This document shows positions 2,492 through 38,486 of a stretch of DNA of 64,000 bases, piece by piece; position 1 is the stretch's first letter, and every line of letters starts with the position of its first letter. The DNA comes from Octopus vulgaris (lineage: Eukaryota): assembly GCA_951406725.2 (NCBI GenBank), contig OX597821.1, forward strand, positions 37,448,001 to 37,512,000, written 5' to 3'. The position numbers and the translations under genes are program-made. The notes under the pieces were generated by a model. That model ran no database searches and was not told the DNA's origin. It worked only from the letters and a program-made list of their open reading frames with translations.

Positions 2492-4160
2492 GAGAAATTC
2501 GGAACCCGCGTTGATTGTTGTGTTTTTTGCTCTCTGTGAAATTCGGTAAAAAGAAAAAAGAACAAAAAGTGAATGGTTGTTGTTGTAAAATTTTGAACGT
2601 AGTTGATGCGGTTTCGCGTTTCACTGGTTCTGCGCGTTACACTTTTTCGGTTCGGGAGGCCGTTTTTCGGTCTGAGGCGACTATGAGCCGCCTCCATCAA
2701 GCGGAGGAGATGGAAGGGAGAAATTACTCTGAAATTTCGACGGAAGTATCGACATCTGAGGAGGAGTTGGCGGTGAAAAAGATGGAAGGCACCTACGCAG
2801 GTGTAACGAAGAAGTCAACGGAAAGAGAGATAGACCTGGCTAAGTTGGCGGGCCTCCAGGAGTTTGTGAAGGAGGACGAGAACGGTGAAGTCGAGCTGCT
2901 GCCTCTAGTAGGGCGCGGAGACTGGTTCCATCGTAGAACCATTAAATATAAAGTATTTATGAATGGAGGTAGAAAGATGGAAGTAATTAACATGGAAGCA
3001 ATTGAAGAGGCTCTCAAGCAGACAGAAGAGGAAATTGTGTACATGACAAAGATTACAATACGGAACCATAACGGTGCAATTTAAAAGTGAAAAAGCAGCC
3101 AGGAATGTAGCAGCCAAGGTGGTGAGTACAGAAAAGATTTACTTGTTACCCTCGTATCTGAATAGGCGGACAACCAGAATTAGGGTGGAGGGAATACCTC
3201 CACACCTAGAGGGCGAATTAATAACGGCTGCGGTTATAAAAGGAAATGAAGATAAAGTGGACATCCTCCACGCCATTATGAAGTATGAAGGCGTGAGAGG
3301 TGCCACACTAGTTATGAACATTCAAACGGAGACGGATGTTATAGAGAGGATTACGGACAGCGTAGGAACTGGAAGTGTTGTTATGAGAGTGTGGGTGGAG
3401 GGTAGGGCACCCGGGTGCTGCGGGTGTGGCCAAAGGGGTCACATGGGGGCCTGCTGCCCTCCCCCACCGAGGGAAAAAGAAAAGGAGAGTGTTGAGGAAG
3501 CCTCAAGAGAGGGAGAAAATAAACAGAAACAGACAGAGAGGGAGGCGGCGGAGGGGGTGGGGGTGGGAGGGGTGGAAGGGGGGAGAAGGAAGGAGAGGGA
3601 GGGACTGTGCGGGGCCCCGGCCCGCCCCGACACCGCCCATACCCTTGGGGTCCCATCCTTCCCCTGCAGGCAGCGATTCCGCCCGCTCCCCGCCTGCTGG
3701 GGGGGGGGGGGCAGGGACAGACACACAGGACAAAGAAGGTCCCAAGACCCACTTTTTATGTGTTATACATGGGAAAGACATACAAAACGTTAAAAAATGG
3801 GTGTTAACCAAGTGGTACGAACACGAAGATTGTAGCTACACGGCTGTGGATAGTGATGATACGGGTATATTGGCGAGAAGGTTTGAGGAAGAGGGTGTGT
3901 GTTGGATGTCAGTGGAAATGAAAGATGAATGGATAGAGAGGGCTAAAAGAAAAACGAATGTTGTGATAGGTAAAAAAGGAATACTAATTGGAAATGGGTG
4001 AAGAAGGACAGGTAAGTGATGCTGGCGGATGGGGCCGTCGGTATCACTCTCATATATCATTTTCATATTCCATTTTGCTCATATATATGTAATTGTGATG
4101 TTCTATGTCCCCAATGTTTGTAACGCCCCCTCTATGTAGCCCCTAGTGGGTAATAAAGAA
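2492..4160 (+). mobile_element. ORF1-only (HAL1-like) non-autonomous non-LTR retroelement, copy 1 (A-to-G hypermutated)
   Basis: About 99% identical to 4172-5850 outside 3362-3738. It has a 5'UTR, ORF1 and LINE-like 3' tail but no endonuclease or RT. Confidence 0.85.
2710..4001 (+). pseudogene. Disrupted ORF1 (gag-like zinc-knuckle protein)
   Basis: Split across ORFs 2515-3084, 3074-3793 and 3426-4001. There is a 2-bp deletion near 3050 (gacaaagatt vs gacaaaaggatt) and indels in the G-rich block. The knuckle reads CCGCGQRGHMGACC instead of CYKCGQRGHIRAYC. Confidence 0.85.
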
Positions 4161-4171
4161 AAGAAAAGATG

Positions 4172-5850
4172 AGAAATTCGGAACCCGCGTTGATTGTTGT
4201 GTTTTTTGCTCTCTGTGAAATTCGGTAAAAATAAAAAAGAACAAAAAGTGAATGGTTGTTGTTGTGAAATTTTGAACGTAGTTGATGCGGTTTCGCGTTT
4301 CACTGGTTCTGCGCGTTACACTTTTTCGGTTCGGGAGGCCGTTTTTCGGTCTGAGGCGACTATGAGCCGCCTCCATCAAACGGAGGAGATGGAAGGGAGA
4401 AATTTCTCTGAAATTTCGACGGAAGTATCGACATCTGAGGAGGAGTTGGCGGTGAAAAAGATGGAAGGCACCTACGCAGGTGTAACGAAGAAGTCAATGG
4501 AAAGAGAGATAGACCTGGCTAAGTTGACGGGCCTCCAGGAGTTTGTGAAGGAGGACGAGAACGGAGAGATCGAGCTGCTGCCTCTAGTAGGGCGCGGAGA
4601 CTGGTTCCATCGTAGAACCATTAAATATAAAGTATTTATGAATGGAGGTAGAAAGATGGAAGTAATTAACATGGAAGCAATTGAAGAGGCTCTCAAGCAG
4701 ACAGGAGAGGAAATTGTGTACATGACAAAAGGATTACAATACGGAACCATAACGGTGCAATTTAAAAGTGGAAAAGCAGCCAGGAATGTAGCAGCCAAGG
4801 TGGTGAGTACAGAAAAGATTTACTTGTTACCCTCGTATCTGAATAGGCGGACAACCAGAATTAGGGTGGAGGGAATACCTCCACACCTAGAGGGCGAATT
4901 AATAACGGCTGCGGTTATAAAAGGAAATGAAGATAAAGTGGACATCCTCCACGCCATTATGAAGTATGAAGGCGTGAGAGGTGCCACACTAGTTATGAAC
5001 ATTCAAACGGAGGCGGATGTTATAGAGAGGATTACGGACAGCATAAAAACTGGAAATATTATTATGAGAGTGTGGGTGGAGGGTAGGGCGCCCAGGTGCT
5101 ACAAGTGTGGCCAAAGGGGTCACATAAGAGCCTACTGCCCTCCCCCACCAAAGGAAAAAGAAAAGGAAAGCGTTGAGGAAGCCTCAAGAGAGGAAGAAAA
5201 TAAACAGAAACAAACAGAGAAGGAAACGACAGAAGAAGAGGAGATGCAACAAGAGTGGGAAGAAGGGGGGAAAAAGAGAAAAAGAAAGAAAAAGAAAAAC
5301 TGTACGAAGCCCCAACCTACCCCGACACCACCCATAACCTTGGAGTCCCATCCTTCCCCTGCAAACAGCGATTCCACCCACTCCCCGCCTACAAGAAAAA
5401 CAAAAACAGACACACAGAGCAAAGAAAGTCCCAAGACCCACTTTTTATGTGTTATACATGGGAAAGACATACAAAACGTTAAAAAATGGGTGTTAACCAA
5501 GTGGTACGAACACGAAGATTGTAGCTACACGGCTGTGGATAGTGATGATACGGGTATATTGGCGAGAAGGTTTGAGGAAGAGGGTGTGTGTTGGAAGTCA
5601 GTGGAAATGAAAGATGAATGGATAGAGAGGGCTAAAAGAAAAACGAATGTTGTGATAGGTAAAAAAGGAATACTAATTGGAAATGGGTGAAGAAGGACAG
5701 GTAAGTGATGCTGGCGGATGGGGCCGTCGGTATCACTATCATATATCATTTTCATATTCCATTTTGCTCATATATATGTAATTGTGATGTTCTATGTCCC
5801 CAATGTTTGTAACGTCCCCTCTATGTAGCCCCTAGTGGGTAATAAAGAAA
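4172..5850 (+). mobile_element. ORF1-only (HAL1-like) non-autonomous non-LTR retroelement, copy 2 (intact)
   Basis: Single intact ORF, short 3'UTR, and tail tcccctctatgtagcccctagtgggtaataaagaaa shared with the LINE end at 38250-38288. Confidence 0.85.
4389..5690 (+). CDS. L1/Tx1-type ORF1 protein (~433 aa): putative RRM-like region, CX2CX4HX4C zinc knuckle, basic linker, C-terminal domain
   Basis: Open frame 4194-5690; ATG 4389 aligns with ATG 31543 of the homologue (alternative ATG 4362). Motifs YGTITVQF, LLPSYLNRRTTRIRVEGIPP and VWVEGRAPRCYKCGQRGHIRAYC match LINE ORF1 at 33318 (YGTVEVRF, LLPLYKGKRTSKITMNNIPP, VFVEGRKPRCFGCGKKGHVRAEC). Confidence 0.85.
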   Translation: MEGRNFSEISTEVSTSEEELAVKKMEGTYAGVTKKSMEREIDLAKLTGLQEFVKEDENGEIELLPLVGRGDWFHRRTIKYKVFMNGGRKMEVINMEAIEEALKQTGEEIVYMTKGLQYGTITVQFKSGKAARNVAAKVVSTEKIYLLPSYLNRRTTRIRVEGIPPHLEGELITAAVIKGNEDKVDILHAIMKYEGVRGATLVMNIQTEADVIERITDSIKTGNIIMRVWVEGRAPRCYKCGQRGHIRAYCPPPPKEKEKESVEEASREEENKQKQTEKETTEEEEMQQEWEEGGKKRKRKKKKNCTKPQPTPTPPITLESHPSPANSDSTHSPPTRKTKTDTQSKESPKTHFLCVIHGKDIQNVKKWVLTKWYEHEDCSYTAVDSDDTGILARRFEEEGVCWKSVEMKDEWIERAKRKTNVVIGKKGILIGNG

Positions 5851-6089
5851 AGGAAAGATGTCATCCGTGAGTTTATAGAGTTGGTGGTAATTGTTGAGAA
5901 GTTGTTATAGTTCGTTGAGAATTGTTTTGGATTGGTTACTGTTGTTGGCAGAGTATTTGAAAATACATCAAGCAGAGGCAGTTGGTGTCTTCCCCGTTCC
6001 ATGGTACACTATATCATACTGTATTAGTGCACGACACTAAGGTGACATATACAGAAACCATATTATATTTATTTATTTATTTATCGCGA

Positions 6090-7120
6090 GGCAGTTGTCA
6101 TTCATATTAATTAATCCCATATTTGATCGAATAAGATTCTACAGATATTTAGCATCACTATCCTTACCAAAGCCATACCATGCTGCTTGGAAGAAAGAAC
6201 ATTTTAAAAGGAGAGAGATCAGATTATTGCTAATAATATTTGACCAGTGTAAGGGTTAGAGAAGTATTTCAGCAGACCTTCAGAAGAATTGTAATTATCA
6301 GTTAATACTAAATTTACAATAATATAATAATTTCATTCAATACCGCCCGTCAACTTGAAGAATGTTGATGGTAAAATTTCTACCTCATTTAAAATATCAC
6401 TGACCAGTTCAAATACATAGAGGTGTGTAGCACTAAACAGTATAATAGATAATTATTTAGTTCACGATGGAAATGTCATTTGACTAGAATTAATTCTGAA
6501 TATAAACTATGGATGGAAGGACACAGCTTGAGTTAACGAAAATTCTAAAAGGAAAATAGCTAATAAATTACTCACTATGGAAGATGTTCTGCTTCAAATA
6601 AAAAGTCCTCAATATTTTTTAATTTATTCTTTATATCGTTCTATTTAAAAAATTTTCTTTTAAATTCATTTTTCAACATTATTTTTTATCTTAATTTATC
6701 TTATAATTCTCATTAACTCAAGCTGTCTTCTATTCATTGTTTATATTTATAATTAATACTGTTCAAATTATATTTCCATCGTGGCTTAAATAATTATCCA
6801 CTGAATAACTTGTTTCTATATCCCTCCTCTGTGATTTCAAATTGGTTAATAATAGTTTAAATGAAGCAGGAATTTTGCCATAAACACTCATATTACAATT
6901 CTAGTATTATCTGATAAATATAAATTTTAAGGTCTCGCTGAAATACCTCCCTAACCCTTGCATGGGTCAAATATTGTTATTTTTATTCCTATCACTCCCT
7001 AAAATTTTTTCTTTCTTCCAAAGCAGCGTGGTATGGCTTTGGTAAAGATAGGGTGATGTTAAATTTCTTTAGAATCTTAATCGATCAAATGTAGAATCGA
7101 TTAATATAGCTGATTACTGC
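6090..7120. mobile_element. Old foldback/MITE-like element with ~240-bp imperfect inverted arms
   Basis: 6090-6330 is the diverged reverse complement of ~6885-7120 (e.g. ttaccaaagccataccatgctgcttggaagaaagaa vs ttctttcttccaaagcagcgtggtatggctttggtaa). Confidence 0.6.
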
Positions 7121-7361
7121 ACCACAGAATTTTGAAATTTGGCAATCTATTCAAAACGTGCGTTAGCTGATACTTAGAGTAAATTTATTCGGTGATTAAA
7201 CTTCGGATTTACGAATAGGCCTGGCGGTTGAAAGTAATTTTACGGTCTAAGTGGATTGCAAAGGCTTTCACTGGACAATTCAGTTAAGTTTGATCCCTAC
7301 ATAGAGCTTTTAAAGTATTCACCTAGAAATTTAATCCATTTTCTTTTGTATACACATATTA

Positions 7362-7731
7362 TTGCCTACCAACCACATGGTTCTGGGTTCAGTCCCACTG
7401 CGTGGCATCTTGGGCAAGTGTCTTCTGCTATAGCCTCGGGCCGACCAATGCCTTGTGAGTGGATTTGGTAGACGGAAACTGAAAGAAGCCTGTCGTATAT
7501 ATGTATATATATATGTATGTGTATGCATATGTTTGTGTGTCTGTGTTTGTCCCTCTAGCATTGCTTGACAACCGATGCTGGTGTGTTTACGTCCCCGTTA
7601 CTTAGCGGTTCGGCAAAAGAGACCGATAGAATAAGTACTGGGCTTACAAAGAATATGTCCCGGGGTCGATTTGCTCGACTAAAGGCGGTGCTCCAGCATG
7701 GTCGCAGTCAAATGACTGAAACAAGTAAAAG
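7362..7731 (+). mobile_element. tRNA-derived SINE of an abundant family
   Basis: B-box-like gggttcagtccc, internal (TA/TG)n and 3' end gactgaaacaagtaaaaga. Fragments of the same family lie at ~1020-1075, 16325-16410(-), 20170-20550, 24455-24580(-), 25400-25540, 25720-25870, 27740-27960(-), 30900-31190(-) and 55520-55610(-). Confidence 0.7.
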
Positions 7732-7959
7732 AGTATATATATATGCACACACACACACACTGAAAATCTTCGTGGCGAGTTGTTAAAAATAAATGAAATA
7801 TAAAGAAGGAAAATACACAGAATGTATAAATTTATACTTTTTTATGAGCATTCCTACGAAAAATATCGCTCTTAAAATCCTACACAGGGTTAAATGAGAA
7901 ACTCTCAAAACACAATACAGAACAAAATGAAAATTAATGATTGTAAAACTTATAATGTC

Positions 7960-8560
7960 ACGGATTCATAAATGTCCCAGGGCATCAGTTTTAGAAATCT
8001 AGGGATTATTGTGGATGAAATTGTAAAATGAAAAGCACATTTAAAACAAAACTAATGTTGCTCAATGAAATAAATATGCATCGGAATATTCAAAAGAGCC
8101 AGTATGAGTTATCATAATGTCACTGTAAAATATATATTCTTGTTGTTGAGTTCAAATACCAGGACTATTGCTTCCATTTATGGCTGCCCTATATAAACAA
8201 ATGGAAATTGAACACCTGACGAAATCAATTACTATCAAAGCTTCTTTGAACTACCAAAATTTTTTAAAGACATTCAAACTGACAATATTTTACACTGTAG
8301 AATATGTGACCGTGTCTCTTCAAAAGAATGTGAGGTTATAGAGAACACGTGAGTCAAGAAAACGTTCGATCAAATTTTAACTTAAATGCGATTCGTCTGT
8401 TCCAATACAACTTAACAAATACTTCCCGAGTTGTTTCTTAAATTCTCATTTGTTCTCGCATCTAACAACGTCTCCTTAATAGAGTTCTTTTTCACAGAGA
8501 CCTGTGTTAATGTCAATTGCCTATACGAACCAGGAATTACGAAAAACTACTTTCTCCAAT
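7960..8560 (+). mobile_element. Highly decayed CR1-like LINE 3' fragment
   Basis: Manual translation gives FRNLGIIVD and YQDYCFHLWLPY, resembling IRDLGVIVD and HLEYCCPLWSPH of the CR1-like ORF at 46429-48696. Confidence 0.45.
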
Positions 8561-10908: not shown

Positions 10909-10958
<50 letters not shown>

Positions 10959-14173: not shown

Positions 14174-14232
14174 TATACAATTAAATGACAGTGTATTTAA
14201 TGGTTGCACATCCTCTCTACACATGAGCGTAT

Positions 14233-14990
14233 TTTTGCTGATGTTAGTAACAAGTAATAAGCAATAAAAAAGATTTTGATACATAAAATCCCAGAATATT
14301 TGAAGGAAGGATTACCGATTTCTATTTCGATATAGAAACATCGTTTGAGAAAGTAAAATATCTTTTTGTCATAAAATTATTCGAAAGCAGGCATGACTGA
14401 ACATAAATATATTTGCATATTCAAATTTGGAAAAGAAACAAAATATTATATCCCGTGGAAAATGACAGTTTTAAATTAGGCTCGTAATTTATTTATGATC
14501 TGATACAGAATATTGAGCATAAACTATTTTAAACGGAGCGATGGTTGCCAAAATGTGGGGAAAAAAAAGATTTTATTTTGTAAAATATGTAGTTATTTCT
14601 TAGAAATTTTCCACAGGAGAAATATTCCATAATATGATGATATTTAGCGAAGAAAGTGTTGTGCAATGGTGCCATAAATATTAAACTTAGAACATATACA
14701 GTGTCACAAGTCAGGATGATATTCTGTAAATTTGATTAATAGGAAAAGTATTAATGCTATTAATTAATACAGTAATTTTAATATCGCCCAACGCCGAATA
14801 CAACAACAACAGTAAGAATAACGATTTTCAATAACAAATAATAATTTCAAATTTTCAGTGTTATCATGTTATATAGAAACGATGTTTCTATATCGAAATA
14901 GAAATCGGTAATCCTTCCTTCAGATATTCTGGGATTTTATGTATCAAAATCTTTTTTATTGCTTATTGCTTGTTACTAACATCAGCAAAA
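14233..14990. repeat. ~115-bp near-perfect inverted repeat with ~530-bp spacer
   Basis: 14233-14346 is the reverse complement of 14877-14990 with about 2 mismatches. Confidence 0.85.
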
Positions 14991-15619
14991 ATTTTGTTGG
15001 TATAAAAGATGGGCCACAGCAAATATTCTGCTTAATAGCACAGATTTGCTTGTCAGTTTCTTGACTGACACCAGTTGAGCATGGCCCTTGGTGGCAGACG
15101 ATATGTGCGGGGGCATCCTAGCCATGTGTTGAGAGGAATTCTTTGGGGTTTGAATAATTCAACTCTTCATTCTTAAAAAAACCTTGTTCATAGACTTTTT
15201 GAGCGGGATGGGTTATTCGACATTAAGATAATTCTAATTGGGCCTCACCTGCAAGATCATGTGTTGCTTATCTTGATATGAGATCACCATGCCGTACACA
15301 TATGATTGTGATGCATGTGCTTGGTGTACTCTTATGAGACGGGTAGTCATGATGGGTATATTGGGCTTCGTGTATTTGTACCTCAGTGTCACTTTGATGG
15401 CATGCACTGTTCTCTCACTGAATAATAATAATAATAATAATAAGAAGAACTAGCTGGACCCGTTAAAACTTCACGGAAAATATAAAAAAATGTAAGCATC
15501 CGTAAATTGTGTGCTGGTGCCATGAAAAATGTTTCTATACTGTGACAGTTACAGAATATAGAAAGAAGTGTAAAACCGACAACTATATCATCCAAACAGC
15601 TCTTCTCAAACACTCTGCA

Positions 15620-16243: not shown

Positions 16244-16313
<70 letters not shown>

Positions 16314-21099: not shown

Positions 21100-21134
<35 letters not shown>

Positions 21135-21137
21135 TAT

Positions 21138-22080
21138 AAAAAAATAAATATAAGAGAATGGTCACTATGTGGCTCATTCTAGCACTAGCAAATCCAAAAG
21201 GTTTCAACCACAAAATACATGTTTCCCATGAAAGCCAGTACGATTGTTAGCTCACACGAACAGGGCAAATAAAAAATAACAAAAATACAGATTATTTTGG
21301 GACAATTGTTTCGCTATTAATGAATTAAATGTAATTTTACTTACAAAAAACCCACTTGTAGCTCCTCAGCCAAAACTATCTGGATGAAATCCAGAGCCAC
21401 ATAGTGACCATTCTCTTATATTTATTTTTGTATAAATATTATAATATATTATAAAATATTATAATAATCCAGGTTTCTCGAAGCACTGGGCCACTTGGTG
21501 TTGAATAGATATACTATTAAATTAGTATCTAATTCTCTCACCCTTATTAATTAATTATAATTATGCTACATTTATTTCTAAATGTAGTATTTGTTTCCGT
21601 GAAAGTTTGGCGCGCTGTTGGTAGGGGCATTTGAATTATAACGTCGGATGTAATCAATTGAACCACACGTGTATTTATCGTTATGGTAAAATCTGGCGTG
21701 TGATTGAGTGGATTTCATCCAGATAGTTTTGGCTGAGGAGCTACAAGTGGGTTTTTTGTAAGTAAAATTACATTTAATTCATTAATAGCGAAACAATTGT
21801 CCCAAAATAATCTGTATTTTTGTTATTTTTTATTTGCCCTGTTCGTGTGAGCTAACAATCGTACTGGCTTTCATGGGAAACATGTATTTTTGTGGTTGAA
21901 ACCTTTTGGATTTGCTAGTGCTAGAATGAGCCACATAGTGACCATTCTCTTATATTTATTTTTGTATAAATATTATAATATATTATAAAATATTATAATA
22001 ATCCAGGTTTCTCGAAGCACTGGGCCACTTGGTGTTGAATAGATATACTATTAAATTAGTATCTAATTCTCTCACCCTTA

Positions 22081-22087
<7 letters not shown>
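21138..22087 (+). mobile_element. Penelope-like element remnant (inverted plus direct pLTR arrangement)
   Basis: 21138-21393 is the reverse complement of 21709-21964; 21394-21558 is directly repeated at 21929-22087. It contains a hammerhead and is flanked by (TA)n. Confidence 0.75.
21727..21807 (+). ncRNA. Type I hammerhead ribozyme (minimal palindromic stem III); mirror copy on minus strand at ~21295-21375
   Basis: ttttgg-CTGAGGA-gcta...tagc-GAAA-caattg-TC-ccaaaa: stem I ttttgg/ccaaaa, stem II gcta/tagc, GUC cleavage triplet. Confidence 0.75.
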
Positions 22088-22136
<49 letters not shown>

Positions 22137-23946: not shown

Positions 23947-23978
<32 letters not shown>

Positions 23979-23998
23979 TATATACTGTATATATATGT

Positions 23999-24033
<35 letters not shown>

Positions 24034-24034
<1 letters not shown>

Positions 24035-24972: not shown

Positions 24973-25011
<39 letters not shown>

Positions 25012-25150
25012 CGTATGTGTTTGGTTGTGTGTACACTCGTGTGACTACTTACGTGTGTATGTGTACGTGTGTGTTAGTGTGTGTAGCCATCCATGACTAG
25101 GTATGTGTATGTATAACTGTGTCTATATACGCACATAGATTTATATGCAA

Positions 25151-25373
25151 GAGGCGGCGAGCTGGCAGAAGCGTTAGCACGCCGGGCGAAATGCTTAGCA
25201 GTATTTCGTCTACGTTCTGAGTTCAAATTCCGCCGAGGTCGACTTTGCCTTTCATCCTCTCGGGGTCGATAAATAAAGTACCAGTTTCGACTGGGTCGAT
25301 GTAATCGACTTAATCCGTTTGTCTGTCCTTGTTTCTCCCCTCTATGTTTAGCCCTTGTGGGTAGCAAAAGAAA
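25151..25373 (+). mobile_element. tRNA-headed SINE with Nin/Deu-like core and Tx1-LINE-like 3' tail
   Basis: A-box-like tggcagaagcgttag, B-box gagttcaaattcc, core gactttgcctttcatcctctcggggtcgataaataaagtaccag, tail tcccctctatgtttagcccttgtgggtagcaaaagaaa. Confidence 0.75.
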
Positions 25374-25635
25374 TATATATCATGTATATATGTGAATAGA
25401 AGCAGGCGTGACTGTGTTGTAAGCTGTTCCGGGTTCAGTCCAGCTGCGTGGCACTTTGAGCGGGTGTTTCTACTATAGCCCTGGGTCGACTAAACCCTTG
25501 TGAGTAGATTTGGTTGACGGAATCTGAAAAAGCTTGTCATATATGTGTTTATCAATATTTAGCAGAAGCAACAGAGTGACTCGGGGGGCGAGAGTTTCGT
25601 TCATTGACACTTGTCAAACTACACACAGACACACA

Positions 25636-25698
<63 letters not shown>

Positions 25699-26601: not shown

Positions 26602-27112
26602 ACTATACTGATACGTAACTGGACAGAATAAATTTAAAATCTATAAATGTCTTCGAATAACCAGTCACTCATCTGGGAAGGCCTTGAAATTTCATTTCTC
26701 CTTAGCTCTCACGTCAAACAGTTGTTAATGTTGATTTCAGTTGGGTCACGCCCTTCCAATTGCTATAGATTTGTAATGCATCTTACGGCTGTGCCTGTCA
26801 CCTGGATGGTGAGGAATCCTACATGTAGGATTCCTCACCATCCAGGTGACAGGCACAGCCGTAAAGGATTCCTCACCATCCAGATGACAGGCACAGCCGT
26901 AAGATGCATTACAAATCTATAGCAATTGGAAGGGCGTGACCCAACTGAAATCAACATTAACAACTGTTTGACGTGAGAGCTAAGGAGAAATGAAAGTGTC
27001 ACCTCTGTAGTTTGCAAATGACCACTATACTGATACGTAACTGGACAGAATAAATTTAAAATCTATAAATGTCTTCGAATAACCAGTCACTCATCTGGGA
27101 AGGCCTTGAAAT
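26602..27112. repeat. Spacerless palindrome (~134-bp arms) inside 89-bp direct repeats
   Basis: 26602-26690 equals 27024-27112. Palindrome centre aggaatcctaca|tgtaggattcct at 26823/26824; the right arm has a 38-bp tandem duplication. Confidence 0.9.
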
Positions 27113-27972
27113 CAATGTTACCATCTGGAGACTATGTGTGACCGAGTGATAATAAAAAGACTGAAAGGAGGTCTGCAATCAAATAAATTTTACTCTACAC
27201 TTTGCAACTGAATCAGTGGAGGCAAAGATGCCTCTCATTTACTTGACAATTTATGCAGTGTGTATGTCAAAGCAAACTGTTACACTGTTGTACCATTGAA
27301 TTACAAATAATGCTCATCTTTTATGCTCGGGTAACCCTACAGCTTCCAAGAGCACAACTGTATTCATTTTTGCTTAGATAAAATGACAAAATTGTAGTTG
27401 TTAAGTCCCCATGGAGGGGTCTTTCTAACTTTGTAAGATGAAATTTTATAGATATTACTTCATTTGTGTCTAATGTCTATGGTTAAAATTTCATCAACAG
27501 CAAAAATATATGAATTGTCATGGGTGTTATGGCCCTTATGCATAGAATATAATTTCCAAATTTCATAAAGATCCATTCAGTACTTTTGACCAAGTTTTGG
27601 ATCATAAAAGAAATTACTAAAATTTGGGATTTAAGGATCCCATTAGGGTGTTTTATATATATATATATATATATATAGATACACACACACATGGACACAT
27701 ACAAAGATAAATTGATAGATACAACTGAGTGAGCAAACAAAAATATGAGACACAGCCTAGTGCTTTTTTATGTTGATAAGCCTAGTACTTACTCTATTAG
27801 TTTGTTCTTGTGAAACCAGTAAGTTATGTGGATGTAAATAAGTGAACAGCAGTTGTGAAGCAGTGATGAGGGCGAAACACAGAGACAAAGACACACACAT
27901 ACACTTACATATATACATACATATATATACGATTTATTTGTTACAGTTCCTGTCTACGAAATCCATATATAT

Positions 27973-30681
27973 TGTTGTTGGCATCCTTTTTGTCTCGGGA
28001 GACAATGGAGTTGCGCATAAAATAATCTTGTCCGGCTTTTACATTTCATGTCCTAATACATCTCTTGCTGTGGCTGTGTAGTCCTAGCCGGGACAAACAC
28101 TCCCTCTGGCAGGTGCCGTAAATGTAGCGAAGACTTTGCCTGACTGGTTGTAATGTCATAGTTTCTTGTTGACGTCTTTTCTTGTCTTTCCATTTCTCCT
28201 TTCTCACTATGTCACTCCTTTGTGTTCCCTCTTTCACGGTACGTCGCCAATCTCCACGGTTGCTGGCAACTGCTTCCCAGTTGGTAATATTGATGTTGCA
28301 GGCATTCATGTCCCTTTTGCAAACATCCTTGTATCGTAAGAACGGTCTTCCCACAGACCTAGTGCCCCTAGCAAGCTCTCCGTTGAGTATGTCCTTGGGG
28401 ATTCTGCCATCTTCCATACGGCTAACATGTCCAAGCCATCTCATACGTCTTTGTGTGAAGAGTGCAAACATGCTTGGTATTCCTGCTTGCTTGAGGACAT
28501 CTTTGTTAGGGACATGATTCTGCCATTTGATGCGATGGATTTTCCGGAGACAGCGCAGGTGAAAGATATTTAGGCGACGTATGGCGTCGTATGGCGTGTG
28601 TATGGCGTCAAAGTCATACAGTAGAGTGCTAAGTACACATGCCTGGTAAATCTTCATTTTTGTGGTCTTGGTCAGCTTATTGTTGTCCCATGCGCGTTTG
28701 GTGAGTTGGGCCATCACAGCAGCTGCCTTGCCAATGCGTATATTGAGCTCAGCATCAAGGGATAGGTTGTAGGTGACGGTAGAGCCAAGATAGGTAAACT
28801 TCTCCACCTCCTATACTCTGTGGTCTCCAATATGTATGTTTGGGATGTCCGATGTAGCCTGACCCATGATGTTGGTCTTCTTGAGGCTGATAACTAAGCC
28901 AAAGTTGCCAAATGCTTGCTCAAAACAGTTGCTGTGCCTTCGTAGGGCTTCTTCTGTGTGTGATACCAGAGCGGCATCATCAGCAAATAGCATCTCCTTG
29001 ATCAGGATGCTTCTGAAATTTTGATCTTGGCACGCAGACGCGAGAGATTGAACAGTTACCCATCACTTCTACTGTGCAGAAACACTCCATCATCTGATGT
29101 CTCAAAGGCATGTGACAGCAGCAGCGAGAAGAAGATGCCAAATAATGTAGGAGCAAGGACACAACCTTGCTCTACCCCATTTTTTATTTGGAAGGCGGCT
29201 GATGTTGAACCATTGTGCTGTATGGTGCCTTGCATATTAGCATGGAATGATTTGATGATCCTCAGCAGCTTTGGTGGACATCCGATTTTTTGGAGCAGGA
29301 TGAAGAGGCCTTTTCTACTTACCAAGTCAAAGCCCTTTGTCAGATCAATGAAGGCCATATATAATGGCATGTTCTGCTCTCTGGACTTCTGAAGTTGGCG
29401 TATGGAGAATATCATGTCAATAATTGATCTGCTTCTAAAGCCACACTGCGATTCTGGATAAATTCGAGAAGCAATTAGTTGCAGCCTGGACAGGATAATG
29501 CAAGCAGAGGCCTTTCCAACTGTGCTTAGAAGAGATCTTCCACGGTAATTGTTACAATCATCACGGTCACTTTTATTTTTGTAAAGCGTAATGATGTTAG
29601 CATCCCGCATATTCTGAGGGACTGTACCCTCTTACCTGCACTAACACAGAAGCTCATGAATGTGCCGAAGCAGGATGGTGTTTTTGCCGGTTTTGATGAT
29701 CTCTAAGGGGATGCCGTCTTTTCCCGGAGCCTTGTTATTTGCTAGGGAGTCAATAGATTTGGCGAGCTCTGCTATAGATGGCAGACTGTCAAGTTCACGC
29801 ATGACTGGCAAGATCTTGACACCCTCGATTGCAGCCTCAGCTACCGTGGTCTCTCGTGAGTAGAGATCTTGGTAGTACTCCATCCATCTATCCATTTGCT
29901 TGCTTTGGTCCCTGATGAGATCTCCAGTAGTTGATTTCAGAGGGGCTGAGGTATTTGCGGATGGACCGAGGGCCTTCTTCAAACCGGCATACATCCCACG
30001 GGTGTCGCCACTGTCAGCAGCTGACTGGATACTCTGACAGATTTCCTTTCAATACCCATTTGCATAGCGTCTGGCAGTCAGTTGGGTTTTATTTCTTGCC
30101 TTTCTGAGTTCTTCGTGTGACTTTGTAGAAGAACCACTCTTGTATTGCATCAGAGCTGTACGCTTTGCTTCGATAACTGGTTCCAGCTCTGAGAGCCCAG
30201 CACTGAACAAAATCTGGGTTTTACCTTTCTCTCATTCCGAAAGTATCTATTGATGTGGTATACAAAGCTTCCCTGATATAATTCCACCTACTTTCAGCAG
30301 AGGAGGTTGGGCAGCTACTGAGGGCAACCTTGATAAAAACAGCAAAACATTGTCGCAGTGTAGGGTTCGAGGTTCTGGCAGTGTTAATGCGTGGTTGGCT
30401 AATTTTCTTGGAGTAATGGACTTTTTAGGCAGAATCCTCACCCTTCTTATTAGTGAATGATCTGTCTCACAATCCGCGCTACGGGTCAGTTGAACAGAAT
30501 TCAGAAAGGATCTTCGTGTAATGATGAGATCCAACTGATGCCAGTGGTGAGATCTTGGATGTCTCCAAGATGCCTTGTGGGATGTCTTGTTGGGAAAGAA
30601 TGTGTTGGTGATGCACGGGTTATGGTATGTGCAAAATTCAAGTAGTCTCTGGCCATTGTCATTCATGTTGCCAATACTAAA
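27973..30681 (-). mobile_element. 5'-truncated RTE-clade LINE (frameshifted APE-RT ORF)
   Basis: Motifs HWHQLDLII/SADCETDH (endonuclease end), KAPGKDGIP, NYRGRSLLS, ESQCGFR, FIDLTKGFD, QGCVLAPTLF, LFADDAAL, RWLGHVSRMEDGRIPK. The 3' end is gtctcccgagac...gatgcc(aac)n; a 78-bp duplication flanks it. Confidence 0.9.
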
Positions 30682-30749
30682 ACACATACACTTACATATA
30701 TACATACATATATATACGATTGATTTGTTTCAGTTCCTGTCCACGAAAT

Positions 30750-30821
<72 letters not shown>

Positions 30822-31364
30822 ACACACACACACAAAGATAAATTGATAGATACAACTGAGTGGGCAAACAAAAATGTGAGACACTGCGTAGAGCTTTTTA
30901 AAATTTTGATAAGCCTGGTACTTATTCTATCAGTTTCTTCTTGTGAAACCAGTATGTTATGGGGATGTAAATAAACGAACACCAGTTGTGAAGCAGTGAT
31001 GAGGGAAAAACACAGAGACACACACACAGACTTACATACACAGATATATATACGATTGATTTCTTTCAGTTTCTGTCTACAAAATCCACTGACAAGGCTT
31101 TGGTTGGTCTGAGGCTACAGTAGAAGACACATGCCAAGTTACCACACAGTGAGACTGAACTGAGAACCATGTGTTTTGGAACCATAAGAATACTTATGCA
31201 TAAATCTAAAATCTTAAATAATTCCTTTGTTATTGTAGTATATATTAATAAAAAATGGAATATTCCCAAAATTGCATGATGAACTAAATGATTTTAATTT
31301 CTTATTTAAACGTGAAAAAAATCTTGAAAAAAATCTGATACAAGGATGTGATATAATGAAACAG

Positions 31365-33058
31365 CAATTTTGAGTTCGGTCGTGTTTTTTTACGCTCGTA
31401 AAATTCGGTAAAAAAGATCAGAGAGAGTTGTTGTTGTTGTGGAGATTTTGAACGGCGTTGGAGCGGTTTCGCGTTCAGCTGGTTCTGCGCGTTACACTTT
31501 TTCTGTTTTGACGGCCGTTTTCGGCCTGTCAAGCGGGAGGAGATGGATGACCACTCCCTAGTGGAGGAGTCGGAGGAAGAATGGATATTTGAGAGCTTGT
31601 CAGAGACATCGAACTCTGAAGACGAGCAAATCGGTGATGTAAATAATGTGGAGATAAAAAACAGGAAAACGTACGCAGGAGTTGCAAAAAAGAAGACGGA
31701 ACAGGAAAAAGAAATAAACCTAGAAAAATTACCAGGTTTCCAGAGGTATATGAGGAAGGACAGCGGCGAGGTGGAACTGGAACCACCACCAAAGAGAAAG
31801 GAATGGTACAATAAGAGGACCATAATTTACAGGGTGTTCGTGAACGAAAGAAAGAAAATAGAGATCGTAAACATGGAATGGATAGAGGAGGCCCTGAGAA
31901 GATCGGAGGAGGAAATCATTTTTCTGATTCGAGGATCGAAGTACGGTACTGTAGTGGTACATTTTAAAAGTGAGACTGCAGCGAGGAAGATGGCGGTGAA
32001 GGCGGTGAAGTCAGAAAAGGTAACACTTTTACCTATGTACTTGAATAGAAGGATTACACGAGTAAGGGTGGAGGGAGTGCCACCAAACGTTGAGGCTGAA
32101 TGGATTGTGGCGGCTGTGATCAGCGGCCACGAGGAGAAAGTGGATATTCTCCATGCCTCGGTCAGGACCGAGGGCTGGAGAGGCGTAACAGTGGAGCTGA
32201 ACGTGCAGGCGGAGAGCGAGGTACTGGTGGACCTGGCGGAGAACATTAAATTGGGAGACGTGATTATGAGAGTGTGGGTGGAGGGCAGAGCTCCACGTTG
32301 TTACAAGTGAGGCCTGAGGGGCCACATAAGAGCCTTCTGCCCTCCCCCACCAAGAGAAAAGGAAATCGTTGAGGAAGCTCCAAAAGAGGAGGCCCCAAAA
32401 AGGAAGAAATTAAAGAGAAGCAGACGGAAAGGGAAACGACAGAGGAGGAGGAGATGCAAAAAGAGTGTGAGGAGGGCAGAAAGAAGAGAAAAGGAAAGAA
32501 AAGGAAAAACTGTGCGAAGCCCCAACCCACCCCAACACCACCCACACCCTTGGAGACCCATCCTGCCCCTGCAAACAGCAATCCCACCCACTCCCCGCCT
32601 ACAAGAAAAACGAAAACAGACACACAGAACATACAAAGGCCCCAGTCCTACTTTTTATGTGTTGTGAGAAAGGGGGATACAGAGAACGCAAGAAGGCTTT
32701 TTGAAGACAATGTATGGCAGGAGTATGAGGACGGAAGCTATGCGGTGTTCGATTTTGAACTTATGGGCTCTTTGATGAGCAAATGTAATGAACTACGTAT
32801 AAATTGTTTTTCAGCATATATGAAGGATGATATGATAGAGAGGTATGAGAGAGAAATGAAAGGTGAGGTGAAAGACTTTGGAATCGTGATAGGAAACGGA
32901 AAGGTAAGTGATGCTGGAGGAGGGGGCCGTTAGCATCGCTTTCATGTTACCATTTTTTCATTTTAACATTCATTTAATCATAATTTTAATCGCATTGTTT
33001 TATGTCCCCCATGTTTTGTAATGTTCCCTCTTCGTGGCCCCTAGTGGGTAATAAAGAA
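31365..33058 (+). mobile_element. ORF1-only retroelement, divergent subfamily (copy 3)
   Basis: 5'UTR homologous to 4200-4390 (ggtttcgcgtt...ctggttctgcgcgttacactttttc), same tail gcccctagtgggtaataaagaaa, candidate TSD atataatgaaacag (31351-31364) / atataatgacactg (33059-33072). Confidence 0.85.
31543..32933 (+). pseudogene. ORF1 homologue with nonsense codon in the zinc knuckle and a frameshift
   Basis: ORFs 31543-32310 and 32454-32933; CYK*GLRGHIRAFC (TGA at 32308-32310); frameshift in the A-run near 32400. Confidence 0.85.
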
Positions 33059-33317
33059 ATATAATGACACTGATTCATATTCATCGATACTCAAAAACTG
33101 AACTTTCGTCATAGTGTATAGTGAGTTATTATATTTTTGCCTTGTGTATATTTTCTCCGTTGTGATCTACTGTGTGTCTAGCTGTCTTTCTGTATTGTTG
33201 TACAACTATTGAAGTCGGCCTTCGTGCGAGGGCTTCGTGTTGGTGTTCCCCCTCCGTGGGGGAAAAACTATCATTATCTTGGTTGTGCCAAGGGCTTGTT
33301 AAAGCCAGTTATCGGAG

Positions 33318-34638
33318 ATGGAATCCCCCATCTCTTATTCACCTGTGACTAGTGATGCAGGATCACCGGCGGTGTCGCCAAAGAAAAAAGAGGCGGGGTC
33401 GCCAAAGAAAAAAGATATTCCAGCACCAGCGAAAAAATTTTCGGAAGTAGCTGGCAAGAAAATTAAAAAAATTAATCTGGAAAACCTAAAGAAACATGCG
33501 GACTGTGTGTCAAAAGAGGGCACGGAAGTAACCGTGGCTTCAAACGCCCAAAAACAGGAGGAAATTTCAAATAGAAGAATAATTTATAAGACCTTCAATA
33601 CAACAAGCAGATCAATACAAAAAATAGAGGAGAAAAAAATCGAAAATTGCTTAAAGCCGATAATGGATAAAATCACATATATCAATCGAGGGAAGAAATA
33701 CGGCACAGTGGAGGTGAGATTCACATCAGAGGAGGTAGCGAAGAAGCTATCCATGGAACCAATAAAAGCGGAGGATATTGTTCTCCTACCCCTGTATAAA
33801 GGCAAAAGAACATCAAAGATCACAATGAATAATATTCCGCCAGAAGCGGATGCCGAAGTTCTGGTGGCAGCAGTTATGGTAGGCCTGGAGGAAAAAATAA
33901 ACATCCTCCAGGCCACTGTAGAGGAGGAAGAATTCTGGAAAGGGCAACGGATAATAATAGCCATCCAGGCAGAAATACAAACCCTGGAGGAGATTCCAGA
34001 GACTCTAAAGATAAGCGAAGATGAGAGAGTCACAGTCTTCGTAGAGGGCAGAAAGCCGAGGTGCTTCGGCTGCGGTAAGAAAGGGCATGTAAGGGCAGAA
34101 TGCCAACCCCAACCCAAACCGCAGGAAGCAGCTCAGCCAAGTGGAAAAGCAGAAGAGGTGTCATCAGAAACAGCGCTGGTCGGCCCAGGAGGGACGGCTG
34201 AAGGTGTGGAGGTGACAGAGGCAGCGGAACCAACGGCGGAGGAAAAAAAGAGCGAGGAAACGAAAAAGGAGGAGGGGTGGTCAAAAATCACTAGAAAAAA
34301 AAGAAAAACTGAAACCACCCCTCCCTAAACCAAAAAAAAAAAAAAGAGAGTCGTTGAACTCATTTATGGCCGTTAAGGCCACGAACAATAGACTCGGTAA
34401 TGTGTTGGCAGCGATGGCCAAAGTAGAAAAAATAGGGAGGAAAAATGACTATGTATTGTACAGAATAGGCCGGAAGGATTACGGACGGATAAAGTCCGAA
34501 TTTTTTCATGACGTAGGCCCGCTCAGAATGGATATAACATCTCCATATATATTCGAGGGCCTGCGTCAGACTCCCCCACGAGGCCCAGAAAAAGAGACAA
34601 AAAAAGAAGAAAACGAAAAAACCGAACCACTGATATAA
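33318..34638 (+). pseudogene. LINE ORF1 (zinc knuckle CFGCGKKGHVRAEC), one frameshift near 34320
   Basis: ORF 33318-34328 continues in the +1 frame (PKPKKKKRESLNSFMAVK...) to 34638, 8 nt before the ORF2 ATG. Confidence 0.8.
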
Positions 34639-34646
34639 GGTAAGTA

Positions 34647-37600
34647 ATGGATTACATTTATGTTGGTTGTTTGAATGTGCGCGGCCTGGGAGCAGGCGGG
34701 AAGCAAGGTCGCTTCCTGCATGATATCAGGTCGCGTAATTTAGATGTTATTGTTGCTACAGAAACCTGGTTAGAGGGGCCAAGAGGTCTTCTCCCGCTGT
34801 TTGACGGCTACGAGAGTTTTTTCTCTCCTGGCAGTCCTACAGGCGAGAGAGGGGTGTTGGTCCTATTAAAAAGAAACCGGGTTTCTGAGAAAAAGTTAAT
34901 TTTTGCAGATCCAGAAGGTAGGCTGGTCGTCATGGATTTGACGTTCAGTAATGGTAAAGTTATCAGACTGGTTGCAATTTACGCACCCAACAGTAAAAAA
35001 GGGCAAAGTGATTATTTTCGTGATCTAGAAAAATTTCTTGGTACTTCGCATTCATTAGTGGTGCTAGGAGACTTTAACACAATTTGCAAAGCGGATGTAG
35101 ATTGTGTTGGCTCGTGTCCAGATAGGAGAGGTAACAGTGGCTTCATGGAACTGCTAAGCCGCTTTGAGCTAGCAGATCCGTATAGGCTGGAATTTCCGAA
35201 CGCTCCATTGTGGACATGGTCAAACAGCGACGGATCTTCCAGGTCATATATAGATAGAATTCTAATTAGAAAAGTAGACAGTAAAATAGCTAAGTGTCCA
35301 CAGTTTTACCCGATCAGCTACAGTGATCATAAAATGGTCACTTGTAAGCTTGACATAGATAAGGTTAGAAATAGAGGATCCGGTTACTGGAAACTTAATA
35401 CGTCCCTTTTGGCGATTAAGGAGTACAAAGACCGGATTAGGAACATAATTCAGAGGGCACTATCCGGTACCATCATTAATAACAAATGGTGGTATGCCCT
35501 CAAACGAGCCATCAAGTTTGAGTCTATTAGATATAGCATAGGAGTAGTGGCTAGAGAGGCTAGAGGGGATAATACTCTAGTTAAGGAATTAGAGGAAGCC
35601 ATGAAAACTGGCTCTGCGGCTCAGGTGGCGTCCAAGAGACTGGTGTTAAACCAGCACCTCGAGGCCAAACACATGGGCTGCATTGTCAGGGCTAGAATCC
35701 GTCATATGGGATGTGAAGGAATCAACGCCGTGAGATGGGCCCGAGTGGTGGAAGCTCAGCATGGTAACGGTGCCACGATTCGATCTTTGACGAACCAACA
35801 AGGTGAGTTGATAAACGAACCCGAGGAGATGTGTGAGGCCTTTCAGGAGCACTTCGCTCAGCTTTTCGGTGAGTGCGGCGGACTGGATAGGAGGAGGGCC
35901 TTTACGGACCTACTCGACGGGCTGCCGCGCTTATCGGGGCGAGATGCGGAGGGCTGTGAAGGGCCAATCACGCCTGGGGAGGTGTTTGAGGCAATGGCGG
36001 ACTGCGGCGCGGGTAAGGCGCCGGGTTTGGATGGTCTACCCTATGAGTTATATAAGAGTATGCCAGACTTGTTCGGGCACCAACTGGCGGAGGTCTATGC
36101 GAACTGGCAGCAGAACGGGCTCATACCCAGATCTGTGCGCCGGGGAGTAGTGACTCTCGTCAGAAAGGACCCGAGCAAGGGGAGTGCATTGATAATTTCA
36201 GGCCCATCACTCTGCTAAACACAGAGTTGAAGATTTTGGCCAAAGTGTTATCGAAAAGATTGGCGCGTGTCGCGGATGGTCTGATCGGAGGGGCACAGAC
36301 ATGTGCCGTTCCGGGCAGATCCATTCAGGATAATCTCCATCTAATGCGGTACACTATAGAGGGGTTTAATAATGATTCTGGCAAGGGTGGGGTACTGGTC
36401 CATTTAGACCAATCTAAAGCCTTTGATAGGGTCGACCATCGTTACCTGGTATCTGCCCTGGCACAGTTCGGGCTGAGCCTTGGCTTCCTCAGGTGGATTA
36501 TCCAAATGTATGATAACATCGACTCGGTAGTTCGGGTGAACGGCTTCTTGTCGAAGCCGTTCAAAATCAAACGCTCGGTTCGTCAAGGGTGTCCGCTCTC
36601 CCCGCTTTTGTACGTGATGGCCCTAGAGCCATTACTGCGAAAACTGAGCGGCATCCCGAGACAGCCGGGTAATGGAAAATCAGTGTCGGCGTACGCGGAT
36701 GACATCACCATCATCGTAACCGAAATGGACCACCTATGTAAAGTAGGCAAGGCCATAGAGGTTTACGAGACGGTGACAGGAGCAAAAGTTAATCGCGAAA
36801 AGTCAGTCGGCTTGCAACTCGGCACCTGGAGAGGCAAGTCGATGCCTCCTGACAGCGTCGTGGGACGTTGGACGGAGGGTCCGATTAAACTGCTAGAGGT
36901 CTGGTTCGGTCCAGACCTCCAAATAGAGAAGAATTGGGGCGAGGTAACGAGCAAGGTGGCTGCAGTAGCCAAGACCTGGTCTTGGCGGTGGCTATCCTTG
37001 AAAGGGAGGGCGGAGGTGGCCAATGTGTTTATCGCATCGGTTATCACCTACCGCCTTTCCGTCGTTCCTTGCCCCGATTCGTGCTTGACCAAGTTGGAAA
37101 GACAGCTCTTCTACTTCTTGTGGAAGGGTAGGAAACCACTCGTGAAACGCTCTACTTGCTGTCAACAACCGTTAAAGGGTGGGCTAGGGATGCCTTGGCT
37201 GATGATGCGCAGACATGCGCTGAGGTTAAGACATCTGTGGCTCTACCTGGATGGTAAACGGGTGTGGTCTCCGTTAGCAAAACTGATGTTTCCCAAGTTC
37301 ACTAGTTTCGGTGGACGGGAAACCTGGCTGAATCGTAGATCGAAACTCGGTACTTGGTACACGGAGTGTCGCAAGGCTCTCCTGCTATTCCGTCGCTCGG
37401 GCAACGCCTGCGGTGGGGGTTCCACCACATTCTTCTATAGAGGGTTGGTAGAGGCGGAATGTGAAGATACCTTGGGGGAAACCCTAGGTCTCGACGATAA
37501 TCAGCTGGCCAGTCTGTTCCGACGTACGTTCAAGCCGAGGACACTGGACAACTTCCAGAAGTCTCTGGCATGGCAATGCTACAGAGGAGCTCTACCTGTT

Positions 37601-38045
37601 CGGGATAAACTCGCAAGGCACGGTGGCCGAGACAGTCCGATATGTCCAAGATGCGGGCGGGATAGGGAAACCGTCCCGCACGCTATTGTTCATTGTCCGG
37701 ACGTGTCTGAGGTGTGGGTTTATGCCGAACAGCTGTTGTCAGGTACACGAAGAGTACAGCTGTCGACTGAGTCGATTACAAAAATTGACCCACCGGATTT
37801 CCTCGTGAATGAAGGTAAGTTTCTGTTTTCTCGTTGTAGTAGCAATTGCGAAAGAGGTGATATGGAAGACGAGAGTGAAAGGTTTACAGGCAGGCAAGTT
37901 CATCTCTGGCCCTGGTTTGATGAATTATTTCATCTTTCACCTGAAAAGGAAGATAGGGCTGGAGAGAATATGCCTGACTAGGAGAGTGTATGAAGAACGA
38001 TGGAAAGATGTGGCACGGAAGTTGCGAGTGAAAGATACAACATAA
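34647..38045 (+). pseudogene. LINE ORF2 (APE endonuclease + reverse transcriptase), two frameshifts
   Basis: LNVRGL, TETW, IYAPN, LGDFN, SYIDRI, SDH, YWKLN, KAPGLDGLP; LDQSKAFDRVDH, VRQGCPLSPLLY, AYADDI; CPRC...ETVPHAIVHC. Frameshifts near 36190 and 37825. Confidence 0.9.
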
Positions 38046-38486
38046 ATGGTAATACCAAGCGCAACCAAAAGTATCAGTGGGGAGGCGGGGCTCGTGGGGT
38101 CCGAGCTAAACCCGCACCCACTCCACCTGTAATGTCTTCCGGTCTGTTTCATCATTCGATTTTGTGTATATTCTTGTAATTTCATGTTATTTTTAAATCC
38201 GATTTTTTGTAAAAACCATCCGTATGTCTGACCCCACATCAGATTGTATTGTCCCCTCTATGTTCGCCCCTTGTGGGTAGTAATAAAATCAACTGAATAC
38301 TCTTCATGTGGTGCCTTACTGCTTTCTGCTGGATTTTACCTCGAGAAAGGAACCCTGAGGAAGGAGGGCTGAATTTCGAATACTTCGTACAACAAACGGC
38401 TGCAGGTTAGGAAAAAATTTTAATCGCCTCTTTCAATTTAGGTTTTTATTTTTCATGTTTATATTCGTATTTCATTGTTTTGTTTA

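Follow-up and report, generated by a model that had tools for sequence, protein, structure and literature searches.

How elements that encode no reverse transcriptase multiply, and what fixes the place where they land, are the questions raised by a 64,000-nucleotide (nt) stretch of the Octopus vulgaris genome (contig OX597821.1, positions 37,448,001 to 37,512,000 of the forward strand; hereafter the window). It holds retroelements that encode only the protein of a first open reading frame (ORF1), a Tx1-like long interspersed nuclear element (LINE) and a short interspersed nuclear element (SINE), all of which end in a common tail of ~40 nt. We followed these elements through the genome and propose, with a probability of about 0.62, that the ORF1-only elements are non-autonomous derivatives of Tx1-like LINEs, which likely borrow the endonuclease (EN) and reverse transcriptase (RT) of the LINE by means of the common 3′ tail and are arrayed together with it, mostly at a single base of a Helitron-like repeat.

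ORF1-only elements form a long-lived family

The ORF1-only elements are 1.65–1.8 kb long, fall into five subfamilies (A to E) and are present in at least 218 genome copies, counted as matches to motifs of the 5′ untranslated region (UTR; 90 for A/B and 128 for C/D). All 90 matches to the 20-base A/B motif were fetched, and 89 of them reach the tail 1.4–1.75 kb later, the 90th being an internally deleted copy; for C/D, all 30 fetched matches end in the tail and are without similarity to ORF2. In the fetched loci, 178 ORF1-only units at 41 loci were classed as A, B, C, D, E or chimeras, and none of the 178, window copies included, has similarity to ORF2 (EN or RT), which bears out the ORF1-only structure claimed by an earlier note on this DNA. 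Subfamily D additionally has the first ~25 nt of the LINE, and the tail is common to all subfamilies. The family thus shows what characterizes ORF1-present non-autonomous LINEs, as it encodes ORF1 alone, is multi-copy and has ends in common with an autonomous LINE; movement through RNA is indicated by target-site duplications (TSDs) of 12–20 bp, truncated copies and an RNA-editing signature.

The ORF1 of the intact window element (copy 2) is 34% identical to the LINE ORF1 over 222 amino acids (aa; E 5e-38), as expected from the homology previously proposed. Between the five subfamilies, amino-acid identity is 24–57%, and C-terminal domains and tails have been exchanged among them. In the RRM-CCHC core, the ratio of nonsynonymous to synonymous substitution rates (dN/dS, Nei-Gojobori) was 0.13–0.18 in six comparisons among A, B, E and one A/E chimera. 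Together with the copy number and the regular ending in the tail, this supports a long-lived, multi-copy ORF1-only lineage under purifying selection and not a set of one-off deletions. The ORF1 tree has long branches and gives no settled deep order of A/B/E, C, D and the LINE.

A model of the ORF1 protein (mean pLDDT, a per-residue confidence score, of 65) predicts two RRM-like domains, a CCHC zinc knuckle, a disordered acidic/basic linker and a C-terminal alpha/beta domain; a fold search with the whole model returned RRM proteins only, with no match for the C-terminal domain. The nearest named relatives are from Octopus bimaculoides, O. sinensis, O. vulgaris and Argonauta hians. Four gene models of Octopus species (P0065, P0008, P0011 and P0062) contain the C-terminal domain of the ORF1-only elements as exons, and in P0065 it is fused to an unrelated host protein, by mis-annotation or exonisation. 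At L039/L040 (C1:74,680,500-74,682,800), an ORF1-only unit has an internal inversion-duplication and ends in the tail, as in twin priming.

Autonomous LINEs and a SINE carry the same tail

Among the fetched LINE copies, intact ones have an ORF1 of 445–459 aa, and ten ORF2 frames of 1075–1133 aa were found. By Pfam and, for the tandem RRMs, by the predicted fold, ORF2 holds an APE endonuclease, an RT and a zinc-binding domain, and ORF1 holds RRM and CCHC domains, which is the domain set of the Tx1 clade. The RT region scored 288 bits against a protein named 'Transposon TX1 149 kDa' and ~117 bits against human L1 ORF2, the two scores coming from different databases. We call the LINE Tx1-like because of this similarity and its behaviour, and not on the basis of a tree. 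At least three autonomous LINE lineages carry the tail (ORF2 ~72%, 81% and >90% identical), so the earlier idea that both passengers use one RT was too restrictive; the two further lineages (~72% and 81%) also sit in the same host repeat.

The four tails listed by the earlier note (5815–5850, 33024–33059, 38252–38288 and 25336–25373) are present as described. Five places in the window match a 14-nt tail pattern (one mismatch allowed), where chance alone predicts 0.02; the tail of the SINE is shorter by one C and was read directly. That note had not included the fifth tail, the site-specific targeting, the arrays or the hyper-edited copies, and its picture was to this extent incomplete. It had placed a stem-loop in each tail: the gccc/gggt stem would be only 4 bp long, and the minimum free energy fold contains the hairpin in three of the four tails (~-8 kcal/mol). 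Across 222 tails, the stem is nearly invariant and the loop variable, two-sided compensation was not seen and folding is weak; SINE tail stems show GGGT/GGGC variants. A tail hairpin is therefore plausible as a predicted structure.

The SINE has at least 37,341 exact tails in the genome. About half of 100 listed SINE tails adjoin the SINE's own internal sequence, which gives 184-bp tandem head-to-tail runs (for example C1:652750-653175, with many others). Its head matched no tRNA (ARAGORN) and no RNA family (Rfam).

Most insertions lie at one base of a Helitron-like repeat

The host repeat is ~1.05 kb long, starts with ATC, contains a GTCT microsatellite and ends in a hairpin followed by CTAGT. 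Helitrons begin with TC after an A and end in a hairpin followed by CTAG before a T, and we take the ends of the host repeat to be these marks of a non-autonomous Helitron. In 17 empty copies, the 5′ TC was present in eight of the nine with a 5′ end found, and CTAGT in eight of the 13 with a hairpin found; exact matches to hairpin plus CTAG numbered 545.

The target base lies between GAAC and ACATGG, a motif with 135 exact matches abutted by the tail and 953 empty ones, and the insertion position was identical in 99 of 100 listed filled sites. By manual count of 100 listed LINE/D tails (of 265), 77 lie at the main site or a junction derivative of it, eight at a second Helitron site ~306 bp beyond and 15 elsewhere. 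Hence, 85 of the 100 listed adjoin Helitron sites or junction derivatives of them, compared with the >20% of flanks in one repeat by which target preference has been recognized in Tx1 elements (PMC4494074).

About 500 bp of the host repeat around the site is a captured, decayed ORF1 of a related lineage, with 30% identity to the LINE ORF1 (E 3e-20) and up to 47–50% to other ORF1-like proteins in the database. We considered whether the family also inserts at the homologous position of its own A/B/E ORF1, which would account for an ORF1 fossil as target, and rejected this, since there were no such matches in the genome. Separately, empty copies of the Helitron-like repeat occur in tandem with ~2-kb spacing at C1:77,347,965-77,360,630.

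Independent insertions and mixed arrays

LINEs and ORF1-only units form mixed head-to-tail arrays, in which a LINE may come after as many as 23 ORF1-only units (C10:47.66-47.71 Mb); at C7:100.09-100.13 Mb, there are 22 D units at even spacing. Many arrays have one half of a single host repeat on either side; the long ones are located within chromosome-scale contigs, megabases to tens of megabases from the ends, and are not telomeric.

LINE pairs that differ by at most 1.2% (n = 93) sit in Helitron copies whose arms are 6.1% apart. At 28 loci with a LINE beside the right Helitron arm, mean divergence was 2.8% for the LINE 3′ ends and 5.8% for the arms, and the two distance matrices were uncorrelated (Mantel rho -0.11, p 0.76); C1c and L148, which have short arms, were left out. 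As near-identical LINEs sit in Helitron copies ~6% apart, the insertions were independent. The 5′ truncations differ between loci, and the first-inserted unit in 45 filled sites was a LINE in 30 and an ORF1-only element in 15.

In 18 of 21 loci, among them all seven ACC loci and a private ATC locus, the next junction upstream shows the flank haplotype again. Solo LINEs have a 12–14 bp target duplication, which implies that with each insertion the site is restored ahead of the new copy; A/E units more often swap ~13 bp of target for a constant tag instead of duplicating it. In off-target arrays (that of the window, C2a, C10a and C14a), the array's own local flank is repeated at each junction. 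Such tags also travel, the C2a junction being present inside array C3a as well, and since the tags of one locus turn up at others, the transcripts appear to include upstream flank. The long arrays contain 4- and 8-unit block repeats. Tandem duplication of DNA as the sole origin of the arrays was ruled out by the mixed subfamilies, local TSDs and edited units, although it still contributes.

Hyper-edited copies point to an RNA intermediate

A total of 218 unit rows, which cover ORF1-only units as well as LINE 3′ ends (a few loci having been fetched twice), were each compared with their closest relatives, and those with at least 15 changes and >60% A>G, a threshold of our own, were called hyper-edited. 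Twelve ORF1-only copies at 12 loci carry clustered private changes, of which 369 of 426 are A>G and four T>C. The A>G changes are all on the sense strand of the element, at seven loci in plus and five in minus orientation. The edited fraction depends on the 5′ neighbour (U 0.40, A 0.30, C 0.11, G 0.03), and the commonest 3′ neighbour is G. ADAR editing is depleted after G and favoured after U or A and before G, so that clustering, RNA strand and neighbours all match ADAR. In the remaining rows pooled, A>G (247) and G>A (278) were similar in number, and no cluster of T>C or G>A was seen among the compared rows. Hyper-edited copies make up 12 of the 178 ORF1-only copies (~7%); none was found among 33 full-length LINEs, a sample too small to be set apart from that share.

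One edited copy differs from its adjacent unit by 119 A>G and seven other changes, and at off-target tandem loci with an edited copy, the closest relative is the adjacent unit in three of four. In the window, most of the differences between copies 1 and 2 are A>G changes in copy 1, 68 in number, and one cluster holds 65 of these. Its edited letters are present in short-read DNA of runs X1 and X2 (study P1) and X3 (study P2): a 384-nt contig spans 3383–3767 with one substitution and three gaps, and a contig from the second study spans 3581–3758. X1 possibly comes from the animal that was assembled, X3 comes from another sample in another study, and this check covers one of the 12 edited copies. 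Among RNA data, none was listed as containing the edited stretch, a result that has no bearing on expression. No clear intramolecular duplex was found in the edited region of copy 1; inverted copies such as the one at L039/L040 could supply double-stranded RNA for editing.

In summary, the A>G clusters likely reflect ADAR editing before mobilisation in trans, judging from their sequence pattern, and such a signature implies that ORF1-only units pass through RNA. Separately, at L031 (C2:158,830,770), the first unit is hyper-edited and its 5′ flank tag differs from the other junctions by a single A>G change, a hint that the RNA started inside the duplicated target.

How the insertion site may be chosen

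Several observations weigh against the reading that ORF1-only elements are mobilised by the LINE through the tail and co-arrayed with it at the Helitron base. First, only 56 of 90 A/B copies are demonstrably in the Helitron (14 of 26 loci, or 15 with L099), and three of the 21 junctions disagree with the flank haplotype. In the three longest A arrays, the nearest neighbour was in another array for 7.6 of 35, compared with 23 expected; this excess of same-array neighbours implies that much of the length of these arrays comes from DNA duplication or, possibly, from assembly error, and together with the block repeats it may reflect unequal exchange or assembly effects. Second, the hairpin is weak, and the minimum free energy fold of the LINE tail lacks it. 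Deeper dN/dS values (0.17–0.50; A–D 0.50, A–LINE 0.43) are near saturation and uninformative, those of the C-terminal domain reach 0.55–1.05, and among copies outside the fetched set there could be an autonomous LINE whose ORF1 is of type A, B, C, D or E. Third, hyper-edited copies with a damaged ORF1 (L098 and L143) still landed on target, so ORF1 protein made in cis is not strictly required.

The SINE is a further point of this kind. No SINE tail lies at the LINE's main Helitron target among 100 matches listed (first 6 Mb of C1); the pair thus shares the 3′ tail of a stringent LINE/SINE pair without its common insertion preference, and the SINE may have used another or older LINE. As the SINE has the tail and not the target, the tail does not fix the target, and tail recognition, which the earlier note had offered as the explanation, does not account for the system by itself.

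In the mechanism that we propose, ORF2 would bind the tail hairpin and nick a loosely preferred AC-N-TG-like site. The duplication would regenerate the site, and later LINE or ORF1-only RNAs would insert upstream, so that the array would grow towards its 5′ end. Transcripts would carry the flank tags of their source locus, and pairing of tag and target would add precision and favour re-insertion beside kin, after which unequal exchange would lengthen the arrays. Some ORF1-only RNAs would become double-stranded, be hyper-edited by ADAR and still be reverse-transcribed in trans into the germline. We invoke pairing of an RNA-borne flank over a loose endonuclease preference because the SINE is off target and off-target arrays re-use their own flanks. 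Only tentatively do we suggest the boldest form of this, in which the RNA-carried flank, and not the endonuclease, would largely set the insertion site; the elements would home into a Helitron-multiplied fossil of their own ORF1 and form interstitial trains like those of HeT-A/TART, with ADAR hyper-edits fixed in the germline.

A possible alternative, which we also hold at well under even odds, is that the endonuclease alone determines the target, as it does for Xenopus Tx1L, with flank tags as passive by-products and arrays that grow only since the TSD rebuilds the endonuclease site. Several element types hit empty Helitron copies at one base, several off-target LINE flanks partly resemble the site, and targeting in the Tx1 clade has been attributed to the endonuclease (PMC4494074), all of which would fit. 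However, the local flanks used again in off-target arrays bear no relation to the Helitron site, the SINE passes over that site despite having the same tail and adjoins its own sequence, and the tag replacement at A/E-type units leaves no duplication.

It is unlikely that the arrays came about in a single event, whether the RT jumped from one tail-bearing RNA template to another or a read-through transcript of several units was retrotransposed. The LINE being the 3′-most unit in 30 of 45 filled sites, the foreign junction tags inside arrays and the identical variants in arrays on different chromosomes would agree with such an origin, but a jump from RNA to RNA would not copy the locus's own flank haplotype, which is found at internal junctions, and at C1d a full-length LINE lies upstream of a 5′-truncated one.

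We consider it very improbable that the A>G clusters are an assembly or sequencing artefact or a DNA-level mutation. Many copies do have homopolymer frameshifts resembling read errors, read support was checked for a single edited copy and the double-stranded RNA partner was not found; against this, the changes follow the element sense strand in both genomic orientations with an ADAR-like neighbour preference and no T>C or G>A cluster, and the letters of copy 1 recur in short-read contigs of two studies.

Finally, spread of one founding insertion by Helitron transposition, without real site specificity, was rejected by the comparison of LINE and arm divergence at 28 loci and has hardly any remaining credibility: the ACA haplotype is enriched in filled relative to empty sites and filled arms are 5.9% apart against 7.6% to empty ones, but the LINEs are much younger than the arms and their distances do not correlate with those of the arms, the loci have different truncation points and first inserts, and filled and empty copies interleave in the tree, with low support.

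Comparison with known systems

ORF1-present non-autonomous LINEs (HAL1, Ag-Sponge and HeT-A) are an established class (PMC5786205). Like them, the octopus family encodes ORF1 alone, has LINE-derived 5′ and 3′ ends and probably depends on an autonomous partner; it differs in its Tx1-like partner, five deeply diverged coexisting subfamilies and site-specific insertion. It is not a HAL1 in the strict sense, the partner RT being closer to the TX1-named protein than to human L1 ORF2. Head-to-tail arrays in which ORF1-only and RT-bearing elements are mixed are also formed by HeT-A, TAHRE and TART at the telomeres of Drosophila (PMC6719617), whereas the octopus arrays are interstitial, lie inside a DNA transposon, have TSD-type junctions, belong to another clade and have no evident host function.

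Tx1 elements are described as targeting DNA transposons, with tandem insertions around the TSD and co-targeting SINEs (PMC4494074, PMC6719617). In Xenopus Tx1L/Tx1D and crocodilian Tx1-Mar with SINEU/Mariner-N4, the LINE is of the Tx1 clade and inserts into two hot sites of a non-autonomous DNA transposon, as in the octopus (PMC4494074). For Tx1L/Tx1-Mar, a TSD sandwiched by tandem insertions, exclusion of hitch-hiking and 5′ extensions from the target are likewise reported (PMC4494074). The octopus system differs from Tx1L/Tx1-Mar in the Helitron-like host, the captured ORF1 fragment as target and arrays of >20 units (>40 kb), and from Tx1-Mar/SINEU in that the co-targeting passengers are protein-coding ORF1-only elements and the tail-sharing SINE does not co-target.

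The earlier note had called tail sharing atypical for the L1 clade. Stringent LINE/SINE pairs are indeed rare there but known (PMC3472496, PMC3747384), with precedents in monocots and Chlamydomonas (PMC3472496): maize LINE1-1_ZM and Chlamydomonas L1-1_CR/SINEX-3 have, like the octopus elements, a short conserved 3′ end common to LINE and SINE, with a hairpin (PMC3472496) that in the octopus is a predicted one. The octopus case differs in being an animal Tx1-like lineage in which ORF1-only elements also have the tail. Clustered single-type changes fixed via reverse transcription or replication are likewise seen in retroelements with APOBEC G>A DNA editing (PMC2873906) and in ADAR-hypermutated viral genomes; here, they are A>G on the RNA sense strand and lie in germline non-LTR copies.

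In a curated repeat annotation of Octopus vulgaris, 13 L1-Tx1 families are given as recently active, and the supplement lists 80 families of L1-Tx1 and 84 of Helitrons (PMC13282606). In the available part of that source, we found no mention of ORF1-only elements, targeting or arrays, which its sequence library may hold unnamed. No title or abstract that we found dealt with Helitron-targeting Tx1 elements, cephalopod ORF1-only Tx1 derivatives or ADAR-edited germline copies of LINE type, with Repbase, Dfam and most subscription papers outside the scope of this search. Each ingredient thus has precedent (HAL1/HeT-A, Tx1L/Tx1D, Tx1-Mar/SINEU), and we found no description of the combination, the Helitron target or the apparently ADAR-edited germline copies.

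The elements in the window and their surroundings

The left group in the window is a three-unit head-to-tail array, formed by a 5′-truncated unit and copies 1 and 2 (Table 1). The window LINE is broken by a frameshift in ORF1 and two in ORF2. The 14-bp TSD that had been proposed for copy 3 is found as direct repeats (31351–31364 and 33059–33072), of which 12 of 14 bases match. Among 12 fetched copies of the secondary target repeat, a family tail lies within 51 bp in three, and tails or ORF1 homologues are nearby in six.

Table 1. Features of the window (positions counted from its first base)
Feature	Position	Strand	Remarks
5′-truncated unit, only 3′UTR and tail (80 nt)	2402-2481	+	heads the local array; matches the 3′ end of copy 2 at 98% identity
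ORF1-only copy 1, subfamily A	2482-4160	+	frameshift near 3050; hyper-edited
A>G cluster in copy 1	3362-3738	+	65 changes from copy 2; hyper-editing of ADAR type, carried in DNA
ORF1-only copy 2, subfamily A	4161-5850	+	intact ORF 4362-5690 (442 aa)
Downstream flank of copy 2	5850-5860	+	first ~10 bases repeated at both internal junctions; locus-specific TSD
SINE with the common ~40-nt tail	25151-25374	+	head matches no Rfam family
ORF1-only copy 3, subfamily B	31351-33072	+	12/14-bp direct repeats; in-frame stop at 32308; inside the secondary target repeat
Tx1-like LINE	33108-38290	+	ORF1 from 33318; ORF2 34647-38042; same secondary repeat, ~50 bp downstream of copy 3
Empty diverged copy of the Helitron-like host repeat	42936-43303	-	main target base between 43255 and 43254; hairpin near 42946
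Secondary target repeat	31190-31350, 33060-33107, 38289-39200		33 exact motif matches; adjoins mariner-like terminal sequence
Decayed LINE, RTE-like appearance	28046-30705	-	EN, RT and C-terminal ORFs in pieces; between a 270-bp direct duplication (27695-27965 / 30826-31088)
RT-bearing 731-aa ORF	46429-48624	-	presumably a CR1/L2-like LINE
Tandem duplication, 2.5 kb, 99.96% identical	57271-62321		recent duplication or assembly artefact
Long AT-rich 29-bp minisatellite	43200-45900		starts right where the truncated Helitron-like copy has its left end
Near-perfect inverted repeats	21130-22093, 26602-27112, 14231-14992, 6091-7120		fold-back or like miniature inverted-repeat transposable elements, or local inversion-duplications

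Implications

With copies intact in both ORF1 and ORF2 and with identical units on different chromosomes, this is a young and probably active animal system. What an ORF1-only element gains from its own ORF1 can be tested in it against a natural control, namely a SINE that has the same tail and another target. The system bears on how APE-type LINEs reach single-base specificity, by the endonuclease or by pairing of an RNA flank, which is relevant to tools for site-specific gene insertion. The hyper-edited copies, for their part, would mark retrotransposition events apart from DNA duplications and provide genomic evidence of inheritable RNA editing on retroelement RNA in the cephalopod germline. 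If RNA-guided homing and germline-fixed hyper-edits are true, RNA editing would be a heritable source of retroelement variation.

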